Source: Naegleria gruberi (Eukaryota). From it: a stretch of DNA of 64,000 bases. The stretch lies in assembly GCA_000004985.1 (NCBI GenBank), contig GG738861.1; one strand, 5' to 3'. Each line of letters begins with the position of its first letter. Position 1 is the first letter of the stretch. A program made the position numbers and the translations under genes. A model generated the notes under the pieces. The model searched no databases. It was not told the origin of the DNA and saw only the letters and a list, made by a program, of their open reading frames with translations. Positions 24,618 through 31,898 of this stretch are shown here, piece after piece.

Positions 24618-26072
24618 TTACTTTCCAAATATTTTTAATCTTTGAATTTCCAATTGTGATTGAATATGATTTAAATCAGTGTTTTGATCCAAAAGCACTT
24701 TGGTTTGAGTTGAATCATTCATTAGAGTGAAGTGCTCAAATAAAGGTTGTTTTAAAAGGATGGAATCATCCATCTCCGTGTTAAAGGTGTCTGAATTTTC
24801 TTGTGAAATTTTCATAGTATCTGAGAGCACCACAAAAGGAATATTGTAAAATCTGGAAATCGAATAGAGTACGCTTGTGCCAGTCTTGTTAGAAATTACA
24901 ATGTCTCCATGACTATAATGGATTGAATCTGATCCTACACACATAAGATCAACCTTTCCAGAACGTGAGAGTAAAGCAACTGCTGCTTCAGTGCAAACTT
25001 GAACTCTTAGATTTTTGATACCCTGATCTAAGGCAAAGTCCTTCAGAGATTTAGCTGTTTTGTACCCTTCCTTTTCTGGCTGAGACTCTGTACAATAGAT
25101 GGTTAAATCAATGGATGCATGTTTTGCATGTAAGTCTAACATTAAATCTTTCAATGATTTAATAACAACACTGCTCCAACTGTGGGTCAATATTGAGATT
25201 TTCTGGGTGTTATCTTTTAAAAATTCTGATTTCACATAATTTTGAAACTTATTTGATAGTAACTGAGTATTGTTTGATATCTTAATGCCAAATTTGTTCA
25301 ATCTGTCTTTCATTTTCTGTACCATATTTTCAAAAGTTTGTTCAGAAATTTGTTTGACAATACTATCCTGATCAAATTGTAATTCACCATTCATTATTTC
25401 TACAAGAGATTGAACAGCCACATTCCTAATCATTGGCATTTCAATTCTACATTGATCTAAAATCCAAACAATGTCTCTCAGTTTCGAAGTTAAAAAAACA
25501 GCTCTCATGCTATCCATATCTATTGAAGAATTCATCAATTTGAAATAATCTGGTATATCTTCAGATGAAAATAAGTTCAAGGCCTTTTTCATAATATCTA
25601 TCGTTTTCAAAGCAATGGTAGTTGCACCATCTGTAAAATTATTAACAATGGTATTGTCTATTTCTACCAATAATTCAGTCTCCAATCCATAGAAAAAGTA
25701 TAATCTGTGAAGAGTGTCTCTTAGATTGGGAACTGTTTCATGTAGGGTGGGAGTGGTGCTGTCATTCATACCCTTCCTCAGAAATTGCTCAGTATCAAAA
25801 ACATTGAATGAATCGTGTTCCCAATCAATCTTGAATCCTAAATTATCAAGTTGGCTAGGGATATCTTTTGAATTTTCTACTGACAATCTAAATAGAAAAG
25901 GATAAACAATAAATCCCTTTCCATTATTTAAAGGCAAATATTGTGGACGACCACTTCGGATGAAGTTCAAATGTTTTCCAACTTGTAATTGTGTTTCTTC
26001 TTGGATTTCTCTGAAGGCACTCCATCGGGCTTTCCACAAAATAATCACCAACCCTATAATCAAACCGATCAT
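24618..26072 (-). CDS. IF-2B family protein (eIF2B alpha/beta/delta or MtnA-like fold); N-terminus unresolved
   Basis: The core matches the IF-2B family (ILTHSWSSVVIKSLKDLM...IDLTIYCTESQPEKEGYKTAKSL...VQVCTEAAVALLSRSGKVDLMCVGSDSIHYSHGDIVISNKTGTSVLYSISRFYNIPFVVLSD). The track start 26111 is a TTG. The first ATG (26072) gives a hydrophobic N-terminus, MIGLIIGLVIILW. See the overlapping Nudix-like ORF. Confidence 0.6.
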   Translation of the reverse strand: MIGLIIGLVIILWKARWSAFREIQEETQLQVGKHLNFIRSGRPQYLPLNNGKGFIVYPFLFRLSVENSKDIPSQLDNLGFKIDWEHDSFNVFDTEQFLRKGMNDSTTPTLHETVPNLRDTLHRLYFFYGLETELLVEIDNTIVNNFTDGATTIALKTIDIMKKALNLFSSEDIPDYFKLMNSSIDMDSMRAVFLTSKLRDIVWILDQCRIEMPMIRNVAVQSLVEIMNGELQFDQDSIVKQISEQTFENMVQKMKDRLNKFGIKISNNTQLLSNKFQNYVKSEFLKDNTQKISILTHSWSSVVIKSLKDLMLDLHAKHASIDLTIYCTESQPEKEGYKTAKSLKDFALDQGIKNLRVQVCTEAAVALLSRSGKVDLMCVGSDSIHYSHGDIVISNKTGTSVLYSISRFYNIPFVVLSDTMKISQENSDTFNTEMDDSILLKQPLFEHFTLMNDSTQTKVLLDQNTDLNHIQSQLEIQRLKIFGK

Positions 26073-26241
26073 TTGAAGAATAATCCACAGGTGGATTGTT
26101 AACCAAGTCAATAGAACCAGAAATTGAAGCCCACATTTTCGGATAAGAATTAACCTTCTCCGATCTTTTAAATAGTAGAATATGTGATTTTTCTTCCTTT
26201 ATCACTTCAATAAAGCCAGTGGCTACTCTTCTCCATTTCAT
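25924..26241 (-). CDS. Nudix-like N-terminal ORF (105 aa) overlapping the IF-2B family gene in another frame
   Basis: MKWRRVATGFIEVIKEEKSHILLFKRSEKVNSYPKMWASISGSID resembles the start of a Nudix fold. The Nudix-box-like REIQEETQL lies in the downstream ORF's frame (+1). This may be the 5' part of a single gene joined by a frameshift or an unrecognised intron. It may also be spurious. Confidence 0.3.
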   Translation of the reverse strand: MKWRRVATGFIEVIKEEKSHILLFKRSEKVNSYPKMWASISGSIDLVNNPPVDYSSNDRFDYRVGDYFVESPMECLQRNPRRNTITSWKTFELHPKWSSTIFAFK

Positions 26242-27547: not shown

Positions 27548-29332
27548 ATGCCATCACAAGATAATACAGAACAAACAAGCTTTTCCTTCAGAGTGCGGGT
27601 TGCTGACAATGCCAAAGTTAAAGAAGAAAAGTTCATCGTGGTTGATTCTCAGAAATTACCAAAGAGCATTGATGAATTATTCAAATTGGGAAAAGCCAAA
27701 TTAAATTTAAAGAAGAAGGTGCTTGCACTTTATAATGGAAAATCAGGACAAGTCATTGAATCGGATAGTATTATTCAAAAGTTATTCAATGATTTTACAA
27801 CAGCTAAGAGAAAACAATTACAGGAAGAACAATTAATTGGATCAACAGGATTAGGATCAAAGCCTTCCGATGATTTATTCTTTGTTTTTTCGACCAATTT
27901 AAAACAAACTTTCCAAGGAAAGATTACGCAACCAGTTGAATCGAGTGACAATAATACAACAACATCTTCATCATCAGTTGAAAAGACACCAGAAGTAGTT
28001 GTCTTGATAAAGGACAGTTGGTTGGATGATGGAGCTATTAAACAATTGCAAGATACTGCTCGTACATTGAAATGTGTAAGAAGAGCCACTGGTCAACCTG
28101 ACCTTCATCCAGGTAAAACATTCCCAGTAGGAGCTGCCATTTCAACTGTAGATTACATCTACCCACCACTCGTTGGTAATGATATTGGGTGTGGTATGAG
28201 TTTGTATCAAACTAATTTAACATCAGATAGAGGATTGAAACAATTAGAAAAATGGGTGAAACAACTCAACGGATTAGAAAGAGGAGGAATTAGCGGCGAT
28301 GAAAGTAGACCTGTATTGGATGTTGAAAGAAAATTCTTTGGATTGGATTCTAGTGAGGATTTGCTTTCAGCCACATCTACTAACTCTGAAAATGTAGATT
28401 TTGAATTACATGAAGCCACAACTGAATTTATTGAAAAATATTTAACCTATTTTGATGTAGATTTGGGTCAACTCCAAGAAGTTACTCCAAATCTTGAATC
28501 GGAAGAGGGTGTTACCTCTCCGCCAAAGAGTGAAAATAAGGCCTTGGAATTTGCCATTCGTCAACTTGGTACTGTCGGAGGTGGAAATCACTTTGCAGAG
28601 CTTCAAATCGTCGAAAAGATTTGTAATGAAAAGATTTTTGAAGAAGAATTGAAACTTTCAAAGGATGCTTGCTTTTTGATGGTTCATAGTGGATCAAGAT
28701 CCCTTGGTGATCATATTCTTGGAGAACATGAGGATAAATTTGGAAATAGTGGCTTGCTTTTTGACTCGGATGATGCAAAGCACTATATGAAATGTCACGA
28801 CAATGCTTGTAGATGGGCAAAGGCCAACAGAGCTCTCATTGCCAGAAAGTTCCTTACTTGCATTAACGGAAATGGTAAAATGATTCTTGACATTTGCCAC
28901 AACAATGTTGTAGAAAAACAAGTTGAAAATGAAAGAGTTTTCATTCACAGAAAGGGTGCTGCACCAACAGATGCTGGTTACTTCTGCATTCCTGGTTCGA
29001 GAGGATCATTCTCCTATCTTGTTCGTGGACGTGAAGAAGATATTGAAAGCCAAATTCGTTGTAATTTTTCAGCTGCACACGGTGCTGGCAGAAAATGGAA
29101 GCGTTCCAAATCAGTTGGTATGGCCGCAAAGGAAAATGTTCAATCCTTCACAGTTACTGACCTCGGATCTCATGTCATTTGTGAAGATAAGAATTTACTT
29201 TTTGAAGAACAACCTGCTGCTTACAAGGATATCGATGCAGTCATTTCAGATTTAGTTCATTTTGGGGTTGTTGAAGTTGTTGCCATTATGAGACCACTCA
29301 TTACCTACAAGATGAGAAACTGTTGCCATTAA
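27548..29332 (+). CDS. RtcB-family RNA ligase of bacterial (E. coli RtcB) type, with a 170-aa N-terminal beta-grasp/CIDE-N-like extension
   Basis: All RtcB catalytic motifs are present (PDLHPGKTFPVGAAI; GNDIGCGMSLYQTNL; GGGNHFAELQ; VHSGSRSLGDHI; ICHNNVVE; HRKGAAPT; AAHGAGRKWKRS; AYKDIDAV). The best resemblance is to bacterial RtcB (VDIGCGMNALRTAL, GTGNHFIEIC, HSGSRGIGN, SHGAGRVMSRTKAKK, MAYKDIDAV). The eukaryotic HSPC117 type is not the closest match. The N-terminus FSFRVRVADNAKVKEEKFIVVDSQKLPKSIDELFKLGKAKLNLKKKVLALYNGKSGQVIESDSIIQKLF is CIDE-N/beta-grasp-like. Confidence 0.8.
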   Translation: MPSQDNTEQTSFSFRVRVADNAKVKEEKFIVVDSQKLPKSIDELFKLGKAKLNLKKKVLALYNGKSGQVIESDSIIQKLFNDFTTAKRKQLQEEQLIGSTGLGSKPSDDLFFVFSTNLKQTFQGKITQPVESSDNNTTTSSSSVEKTPEVVVLIKDSWLDDGAIKQLQDTARTLKCVRRATGQPDLHPGKTFPVGAAISTVDYIYPPLVGNDIGCGMSLYQTNLTSDRGLKQLEKWVKQLNGLERGGISGDESRPVLDVERKFFGLDSSEDLLSATSTNSENVDFELHEATTEFIEKYLTYFDVDLGQLQEVTPNLESEEGVTSPPKSENKALEFAIRQLGTVGGGNHFAELQIVEKICNEKIFEEELKLSKDACFLMVHSGSRSLGDHILGEHEDKFGNSGLLFDSDDAKHYMKCHDNACRWAKANRALIARKFLTCINGNGKMILDICHNNVVEKQVENERVFIHRKGAAPTDAGYFCIPGSRGSFSYLVRGREEDIESQIRCNFSAAHGAGRKWKRSKSVGMAAKENVQSFTVTDLGSHVICEDKNLLFEEQPAAYKDIDAVISDLVHFGVVEVVAIMRPLITYKMRNCCH

Positions 29333-30956: not shown

Positions 30957-31898
30957 ATGGAAACATTACAAGATGAGTGGATTATTATTTGTTCTTTTAT
31001 GAATGTTAGAAGTTTATTAAATTTTCAATTGGCATGCAGGGATTTCTATCGGATTGGATCTTGTGATATCATATGGAAGAGTATTTATCAATATTATTGG
31101 AAAAGTTGGTCATCAGATTTGCATCCGAATCAAAATATAAAGTTTGGATTGTGTGGTCATCTCTCCATCATTAACAAGGAAATGCCAACAGAAAATTACA
31201 AATATCATGTGATGGGAGTGTATGAATTGCAACATTTAAGAACGGATGGGAAGATTAAATTTCAAAAATATGAGTCAATACTGAAAAAACCACTTGATGA
31301 AATGCATTCGAAAGTGACTCACATGAAGATATCAATTTTAGGAGAAGGAAATGGAGTCACATCTCTGTTGATGAGATTGAAATTAGGAGCATTCCCACAA
31401 ACAGCATTAAATATTGGAAGTCTGCCGGCTATGGAAACCTTTAGGCATGAAACTGTAAAAGAAGGAAGAAAATTCTCAATTGATTTCATTGACCTTTCAG
31501 ATATTGGATATTCACGATTAATGCCATTGCTTTTGTATGGTTGTGATCTTTTCGTTCCAACATTTTCTCTCAATAATGCGCATTCTTCATTTGAAAGAGT
31601 TGAGATCAAGTGGATCCCAACAATTGAACATTACATGTGCAATGCACCAATTATAATATTGGGAACGAAACTAGATGAAAAAAGTAATACACACGTTATT
31701 ACAGAGAAGAAGTTATCACAACAGTCTAATTGTATCACTTATTATGAAATATCAGCACTCACAGCAGATGATGACCAAATGAATCAATTTGTTGAGCTAT
31801 GTGTCAAATCTGTTCTCATGACTCACAAACCAATAATAACAAGTGAGAACAGCTTTGCAACAACTTTTGGAAAACCAAAAAAATGTTTCCTTCAATAG
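30957..31898 (+). CDS. F-box plus Ras-superfamily-like pseudo-GTPase with a C-terminal CaaX box
   Basis: The N-terminus is F-box-like (DEWIIICSFMNVRSLLNFQLACRDFYRIGSCDIIWKSIY). The GTPase-like fold has a degenerate P-loop (KISILGEGNGVTSLL, no Lys) and no DxxGQ. NKxD is retained as ILGTKLD and SAK as EISAL. The protein ends ...KPKKCFLQ* (CaaX). Confidence 0.55.
   Translation: METLQDEWIIICSFMNVRSLLNFQLACRDFYRIGSCDIIWKSIYQYYWKSWSSDLHPNQNIKFGLCGHLSIINKEMPTENYKYHVMGVYELQHLRTDGKIKFQKYESILKKPLDEMHSKVTHMKISILGEGNGVTSLLMRLKLGAFPQTALNIGSLPAMETFRHETVKEGRKFSIDFIDLSDIGYSRLMPLLLYGCDLFVPTFSLNNAHSSFERVEIKWIPTIEHYMCNAPIIILGTKLDEKSNTHVITEKKLSQQSNCITYYEISALTADDDQMNQFVELCVKSVLMTHKPIITSENSFATTFGKPKKCFLQ

Follow-up and report, generated by a model that had tools for sequence, protein, structure and literature searches.

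A CIDE-N-like beta-grasp module on an RtcB2-type RNA ligase of Naegleria gruberi and on related eukaryotic proteins

The 64,000-nucleotide (nt) stretch of Naegleria gruberi nuclear DNA analysed here (contig GG738861.1; the whole stretch is called the window below) contains, at 27548..29332 on the + strand, a complete intron-less open reading frame (ORF) of 594 amino acids (aa) plus stop, encoding an RNA ligase of the bacterial RtcB2 type that is headed by a CIDE-N-like beta-grasp module. The product is 100% identical to N. gruberi EFC45815.1/XP_002678559.1 (NAEGRDRAFT_66252). The coordinates and length are exactly those proposed in an initial annotation made from the letters of the sequence, and the motifs quoted there were found and line up with E. 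coli RtcB1 in the way it had stated. The assignments of family and architecture are, in our judgement, close to certain. The best explanation of the whole, to which we give a probability of about 0.5, is that of an acquired RtcB2 in which the module would replace the coupling to the bacterial partner PrfH, and which would repair the decoding centre of 18S rRNA.

The subfamily was defined by NCBIfam models, sequence identities and the nature of the closest relatives. The protein exceeds the cut-offs of NF007153 (equivalog; 415.9 bits, cut-off 407) and TIGR03073 (release_rtcB; 367.1 bits, cut-off 271.8). Its identity to E. coli RtcB2 (EcRtcB2) is 43% over 250 aa and 46% over 89 aa (201 and 85 bits), versus 26% (113 bits) to E. 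coli RtcB1 (EcRtcB1), and reaches about 50% to bacterial RtcB2 over aligned columns. The EcRtcB2 sequence used in the comparison was taken from an intact E. coli rtcB2-prfH operon, reached via the prfH pseudogene of K-12; the DNA of a distant rtcB2-prfH operon, used as query against E. coli genomes, gave no match. Among 5.8 billion proteins, the closest non-eukaryotic ones were bacterial 'release factor H-coupled RtcB' proteins of about 375 aa, and nearly all the top matches were of this kind; the gene of one of them (P0015, 328 bits) overlaps by 4 nt a downstream gene encoding a 215-aa RF-1-domain protein, a typical rtcB2-prfH operon. The RtcBs of the PDB scored 79-108 bits (human RTCB, 78.9; P. 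horikoshii, 94, in two stretches only; Thermus also in this range). By sequence, the subfamily is PrfH-coupled RtcB2. The initial annotation had placed the protein in the clade of E. coli RtcB (RtcB1, encoded in the rtcBA operon); the NCBIfam cut-offs and the 43-46% versus 26% identities move it to RtcB2 instead, and membership of the RtcB1 clade was rejected by the comparison of the EcRtcB1, EcRtcB2 and P0015 scores. Its other statement on affinity, that the protein differs from canonical HSPC117, agrees with the 78.9 bits obtained with human RTCB: the high similarity to be expected of the strongly conserved canonical eukaryotic orthologues is absent.

The catalytic part of the protein is that of a bacterial-type RtcB ligase and is intact. 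The RtcB2-type 3'-phosphate/5'-hydroxyl RNA ligase domain (residues 149-590, 27992..29317; this and all other features of the gene lie on the + strand) was delimited with Pfam, NCBIfam, the identity to EcRtcB2 and Foldseek. The Pfam RtcB match (PF01139; E 4.5e-78, 263.8 bits, gathering cut-off 27) runs end to end, with residues 166-588 covering profile positions 1-425 of 426. Seven residues (D212, C215, N347, H348, H380, H451 and H511) are invariant in the homologue alignment, and the metal-ligand and nucleophile motifs align with those of RtcB1, P. horikoshii and T. thermophilus: the metal-ligand motif D212-I-G-C215 (28181..28192; D75/C78 of E. coli RtcB1); N347-H348 of GGGNHF in the metal and GTP site (28586..28591; GTGNHF in RtcB1); the metal ligands H380 of HSGSR (28685..28687) and H451 of CHNN (28898..28900), both aligned to EcRtcB1; and H511 of AHGAGR (29078..29080; H337 of E. 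coli RtcB1, H404 of P. horikoshii), the predicted guanylylated nucleophile. The nucleophile role of the HGAGR histidine comes from RtcB enzymology (Chakravarty et al. 2012, as cited in PMC4408790). The AlphaFold model of the full-length protein has a predicted local distance difference test (pLDDT) score of 82, and Foldseek matched it to RtcB structures, including P. horikoshii RtcB (E 2e-28; no RtcB2 structure has been solved). Because the active site is intact, the chemistry of a catalytically competent, GTP/Mn2+-dependent 3'-phosphate/5'-OH RNA ligase is predicted.

The CIDE-N-like beta-grasp module occupies residues 11-126 (27578..27925) and was delimited with the homologue alignment, the structure model and the profile search. 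Its family signature is R-x-R/T...N...[A]K-x-KL-x-L-K-K...G...D-D-L-x-V-x-S...Q/V-G; the module is net basic, and the (N/A)K-L-x-L-K-K patch is strongly conserved. AlphaFold2 modelled the module as a beta-grasp fold (pLDDT 86), which in structure comparison is closest to solved CIDE-N domains. A search of the PDB sequences with the module profile placed CIDE-N on top (Drep4 and FSP27, E 2.4e-4; DFF45 and ICAD weaker), and Foldseek with the full-length model again gave the FSP27 CIDE-N for the module region. The Pfam CIDE-N model (PF02017, cut-off 23.5 bits) gave no match to the N. gruberi module. Among ten members of the module family, sub-threshold matches were obtained with CIDE-N in four (best E 0.0088), with KHA (PF11834) in three (14.2-16.9 bits, cut-off 29.6) and with DCX2_DCDC1 in three (best E 3e-4; the DCX models tested were PF03607 and PF24478). 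The position of the FSP27 'EEDG' reads 'NGKSG' in N. gruberi and is non-acidic in the family consensus. The evidence supports a module that is CIDE-N-like by fold and remote homology, short of formal Pfam membership. The CIDE-N/beta-grasp proposal of the initial annotation survives in this form, with fold and PDB profile matches in its favour and no Pfam CIDE-N match above threshold.

The module is absent from the bacterial RtcB2 homologues aligned, and it is present on RtcB2-type proteins of N. fowleri, N. lovaniensis, Willaertia, Acrasis, Nuclearia, a rotifer, the labyrinthulid Aplanochytrium and the green alga Bryopsis; further named carriers of the module-RtcB2 fusion are Chytriomyces, Siphonaria sp., Hyaloraphidium, Selaginella (two loci) and the prokinetoplastid Apiculatamorpha. 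Two metagenomic proteins outside the set from which the profile was built also have the module. An exhaustive HMMER search with the module profile over 1.84 billion cluster representatives (E<=1e-3) retrieved 86 proteins, at least 21 further clusters of which are module-RtcB2 fusions; a word-indexed search with the same profile returned 0 matches, missing even the query proteins, and is an unreliable negative for short domains. At least 24 full-length module-RtcB2 fusion proteins were gathered from many eukaryotic lineages. The initial annotation had read the fusion as the redeployment of a horizontally acquired RNA repair ligase with a new module. The fusion is not specific to Naegleria: it is shared by a broad eukaryotic clan, from Heterolobosea to chytrids, Selaginella and a rotifer, and is therefore old, or has spread among eukaryotes.

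This distribution also bears on whether the gene is an artefact, that is, bacterial contamination or an N-terminal region mis-joined to an RtcB gene, as might be suspected from a catalytic domain that is most similar to bacterial proteins. The reading frame is unbroken, with in-frame stops 12-18 nt upstream of the ATG. The gene lies on a 507-kb contig, and the neighbouring ORFs are eukaryotic in kind (IF-2B family, glycine-cleavage T protein (GcvT), F-box/Ras-like, HMG-box and WD40). Its GC content (37%) is near that of its own 2-kb surroundings (about 38%; average of the whole 64-kb window, about 34%). The same architecture recurs in three Naegleria genomes, in Willaertia and in many other eukaryotes; a chytrid module-RtcB2 gene contains an intron, and a metagenomic one adjoins Ribosomal_L6e and Rad10 genes. 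The ORF, the upstream stops and the eukaryotic neighbours effectively refute contamination or a mis-joined gene, and the mis-joining that the initial annotation had named as a risk is not seen, the orthologues having the same architecture. The N. fowleri orthologue (VFQX01000034.1) is not syntenic with the N. gruberi locus; it lies between RNase H and reverse-transcriptase (retroelement-like) genes.

Neighbour-joining trees were built from 133 sequences (24 fused proteins, three truncated or unfused relatives and about 105 bacterial RtcB2s). Without outgroup, the 24 fused proteins and the three relatives split from the bacterial RtcB2s in 57 of 60 bootstrap replicates. The EcRtcB1 outgroup joined inside the eukaryotic RtcB2 clan, beside the long branch of the rotifer protein P0054, and not among the bacterial RtcB2s; this placement is probably due to long-branch attraction and, formally, the tree does not fix the direction or the date of the transfer. 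The tree is most simply read as one acquisition and one fusion event, after which the gene was inherited vertically and lost in some lineages, moved from one eukaryote to another, or both; we infer that the direction of transfer was from bacteria.

Proteins other than RtcB2 also carry the module. The module profile retrieves metazoan DCDC1-like multi-DCX proteins (E ~1e-10), whose matched units also score as Pfam KHA/CIDE-N. A metagenomic protein of 595 aa (P0161; locus L010, 302-2089) combines a 2H phosphoesterase (2_5_RNA_ligase2), the module and an Exo_endo_phos (EEP) domain, in that order, and is a second module architecture related to RNA-end processing. In P0175 and P0194, the module was found fused to an NTM1-type N-terminal methyltransferase (Methyltransf_PK) and inside a SAP...RING-finger protein. 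Another family (P0167, P0169, P0188, P0201 and 38 more; about 300-400 aa; chytrids, the haptophyte Chrysotila and metagenomes) joins the module to a C-terminal domain without Pfam match, whose invariant T-x-x-HE-x-x-HA ... DEF-x-AY ... W pattern suggests a metallohydrolase. In Chytriomyces hyalinus and Siphonaria sp. JEL0065, this module-HExxH protein occurs alongside a module-RtcB2 protein. No heterolobosean member was found in the module-HExxH family, and such a protein was consequently dropped as a candidate partner of the Naegleria ligase. Since the module heads several unrelated enzymes, it fits a mobile adaptor or docking domain.

Two other functions of the module were weighed against docking. 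It might act by homotypic oligomerisation or heterodimerisation in the style of CIDE-N/PB1, regulating the ligase as in DFF40/DFF45 or through filaments, with no ribosome targeting. The closest solved relatives, CIDE-N and PB1, act by homotypic contacts, and other module-headed enzymes occur in the same taxa (Chytriomyces, Siphonaria), besides the 2H-phosphoesterase/EEP protein. We nevertheless consider this function distinctly unlikely, as the acidic EDG surface is not conserved, only the basic K-L-x-L-K-K patch being kept, and no second heterolobosean module protein appears among the 86 profile matches or in the HExxH family. The module might otherwise be a DCX-like tubulin- or microtubule-binding domain by which the ligase is anchored on the cytoskeleton or the flagellar apparatus, a proposal which the sub-threshold DCX2_DCDC1 matches bring to mind and which seems very unlikely. 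The profile-versus-PDB search returned no DCX chain while CIDE-N was present, and the DCDC1-like matches fall on regions called as KHA/CIDE-N and not on canonical DCX repeats. Nuclearia and Hyaloraphidium are not known to have flagella, which counts against it as well.

The bacterial partner of RtcB2 was searched for around the gene. A tblastn search for PrfH in the 64-kb window found nothing (best E 4.7), and there is no RF-1 gene within 10 kb of the orthologues in N. fowleri, Chytriomyces and metagenomic eukaryotic contigs. With no PrfH nearby, the Naegleria protein is therefore an RtcB2 homologue outside any RtcB2-PrfH system. In bacteria, prfH encodes an RF-1-domain protein of about 205-215 aa and forms a two-gene operon with rtcB2. 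EcRtcB1 and EcRtcB2, 28% identical, have mutually exclusive substrates: EcRtcB2 leaves cleaved tRNAs unrepaired and re-ligates the 16S rRNA of 30S subunits that colicin E3 or CdiA-CT has cleaved between A1493 and G1494, and on the damaged 70S ribosome, once it has stalled, PrfH frees the peptide (PMC9304027). RtcB2 without PrfH is able to repair 30S and 70S, and PrfH speeds the repair of translating ribosomes (PMC13166195). The initial annotation had described the bacterial type as working in stress-induced RNA repair and not in tRNA splicing; the known substrate of the subfamily, established for EcRtcB2 only, is the damaged small ribosomal subunit and not tRNA (PMC9304027). The Discussion of Tian et al. 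2022 mentions 98 eukaryotic RtcB2s, mostly from fungi and plants, predicts 40S repair for them and asks how damaged 80S ribosomes would be rescued, PrfH being restricted to bacteria (PMC9304027).

The explanation that we favour can be set out as follows. An early eukaryote would have acquired the RtcB2 subfamily from bacteria, or the gene would have passed between eukaryotes; the operon partner PrfH would have been lost, and the N-terminal CIDE-N-like beta-grasp gained by way of a flexible serine/threonine (S/T) linker. The ligase would re-seal endonucleolytic cuts in the decoding-centre helix of cytosolic 18S rRNA in the 40S subunit, made by colicin-E3/CdiA-like ribotoxins of the bacteria that phagotrophic or osmotrophic eukaryotes meet. 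The small-subunit rRNA is the likeliest candidate substrate because of the approximately 50% identity to bacterial RtcB2 and because the decoding-centre helix is universally conserved. The module begins at residue 1-5 in most homologues, and the N-terminus of the N. gruberi protein is acidic; a module at the extreme N-terminus leaves no space for a transit peptide, which points to the cytosolic 18S rRNA of the 40S subunit as the target and makes a mitochondrial role unlikely. The beta-grasp would serve in protein-protein or protein-ribonucleoprotein docking and, by guiding the ligase either to its substrate or to a rescue factor of the host, make up for the missing PrfH coupling; ribosome splitting would come from general host rescue factors, and the acidic insertion described below would be a lineage-specific surface elaboration. 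The substrate and the docking model, which are reasoned from these comparisons, are held more tentatively than the explanation as a whole, at best evenly balanced. A more far-reaching version, which we find rather unlikely, would make the module the eukaryotic functional replacement of PrfH, docking on damaged 40S/80S or on a rescue or splitting factor in an unrecognised cytosolic pathway of 18S re-ligation, with the putative HExxH hydrolase and the 2H/EEP, methyltransferase and RING carriers working on the same platform. In this version, the module may also represent a pre-metazoan ancestor of the CIDE-N domain.

Several points weigh against this explanation. Eukaryotic RtcB2s are known from sequences alone, and no ribotoxin is known to cut the eukaryotic decoding centre in vivo in such organisms (Tian et al., PMC9304027). 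The module does not reach the gathering threshold of any of the Pfam models for CIDE-N, KHA and DCX, and the acidic EDG face of the CIDE-N head-to-tail contacts is not conserved in it. The tree was made by neighbour-joining only, with a bacterial sample biased to query-like sequences. N. gruberi may in addition lack a canonical HSPC117, and a role in tRNA ligation is hence conceivable.

This last point leads to a reading in which the protein is a general or tRNA-directed RNA ligase, employed in tRNA/mRNA repair or in tRNA/HAC1-type splicing in place of HSPC117, with the beta-grasp as a generic interaction domain. All RtcBs have one chemistry; N. gruberi is listed with only two RtcBs and is unusually rich in RNA repair enzymes (PMC4408790); and a diplonemid study places a Naegleria RtcB in an EcRtcB1-like clade (PMC12699882), so HSPC117 may be missing. 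That sequence is probably, by elimination, the other N. gruberi paralogue. Against such a role, EcRtcB2 restores fewer than 2% of cleaved tRNAs, the reverse of what is seen with RtcB1 (PMC9304027), and the approximately 50% identity of the catalytic domain to bacterial RtcB2 argues for a conserved substrate. Seven N. gruberi Rnl1-family ligases could carry out tRNA splicing (PMC4408790), and the fungi and plants that bear RtcB2 use Trl1 (PMC9304027). Taken together, we regard a general or tRNA-directed function as unlikely and retain the repair of the small ribosomal subunit as the preferred explanation.

Three segments of the protein lie outside the conserved module and core. The S/T-rich disordered linker (residues 127-148, 27926..27991) has S or T at 11 of its 22 residues, with pLDDT below 50 at 126-144; the initial annotation was right about an N-terminal extension with such a linker, and its figure of about 170 aa becomes about 148 aa relative to bacterial RtcB2. 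A helical insertion within the beta-grasp (about residues 80-106, 27785..27865) occurs only in the genus Naegleria, being missing from Willaertia, Acrasis and all the other homologues, and the predicted model shows it as a long helix leading into a loop of low confidence. The third is a net-acidic surface segment of 93 aa (residues 244-336, 28277..28555; 22 D/E versus 7 K/R) between the L-x-G-L-E and LGT-x-GGGNHF motifs, which in the predicted model is partly helical with two low-confidence stretches. Its blocks are conserved in three Naegleria species (N. gruberi, N. fowleri and N. lovaniensis); Willaertia has a shorter version of the segment. An acidic insertion of about 90 aa had been noted in the initial annotation; the 93-aa acidic segment is there, and only about 70 aa of it lack a bacterial counterpart. 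To judge from the homologues, this insertion is specific to the genus Naegleria within the ligase fusion architecture. An unspliced intron was rejected as its origin by the conservation at protein level across Naegleria and by a GC content equal to that of the whole gene.

Two of the neighbouring ORFs have features of their own. Within 24618..26241 (-), a 497-aa ORF encodes an IF-2B-family protein (Pfam PF01008), and a Nudix-box-like REIQEETQL is present in its N-terminal part and in the overlapping upstream ORF 25924..26241; the two may belong to one gene for a Nudix/IF-2B fusion that is interrupted by an intron or a change of frame. The 313-aa ORF at 30957..31898 (+) shows an unusual pairing of an F-box-like motif (weak, E 3.8e-4) and a Ras-family GTPase domain.

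The existence of eukaryotic RtcB2s is already known (Tian et al. 2022, PMC9304027), and the N. gruberi protein has been listed, uncharacterised, by Unciuleac & Shuman as one of the two RtcBs of this organism (PMC4408790). The literature search found no paper joining RtcB with CIDE-N, KHA or DCX, or dealing with the architecture of eukaryotic RtcB2s, although an earlier description is possible; the conserved eukaryote-specific module on RtcB2 is apparently undescribed. Ribosome repair by rRNA re-ligation has been shown only in bacteria, through RtcB2-PrfH, and the module gives the question raised by Tian et al. 2022, of a eukaryotic RtcB2 without PrfH, a concrete handle. CIDE-N-like domains, familiar mainly from apoptosis and lipid droplets in animals, are thereby extended to an RNA-repair setting in protists, fungi and plants.

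Compared with the known systems, the Naegleria protein is of the same subfamily as the bacterial rtcB2-prfH system (E. coli ATCC 25922 and many other strains; Tian et al. 2022 PNAS; Maviza et al. 2022, 2026). The metal, GTP and nucleophile residues of bacterial RtcB2 are all kept, and the size of the core is equal once the lineage-specific insertions are removed; the Naegleria protein differs in having no PrfH partner, in the added beta-grasp and S/T linker, and in the acidic insertion of about 70 aa. The Naegleria gene is monocistronic, nuclear and eukaryotic, whereas bacterial rtcB2 lies in an operon. E. coli RtcB1 and the archaeal and metazoan RtcB/HSPC117 have the fold and the chemistry in common with it (PF01139), but their substrates differ from those of RtcB2 (tRNA repair or splicing), and HSPC117 works in a complex with Archease, DDX1 and others. 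The true CIDE-N domains (DFF40/CAD, DFF45/ICAD, CIDE-A/B/C/FSP27 and Drosophila Drep1-4; kin beta-grasps are PB1, DCX and KHA) belong to apoptotic nucleases and lipid-droplet proteins of animals, whereas the module described here belongs to an RNA ligase of protists, fungi and plants. The Naegleria protein takes its place among the eukaryotic RtcB2s of Tian et al. 2022, to which the 40S prediction and the PrfH question apply alike; that account did not deal with domain architecture, and the module, the clan of fused proteins and the carriers among Heterolobosea and other protists are documented here.

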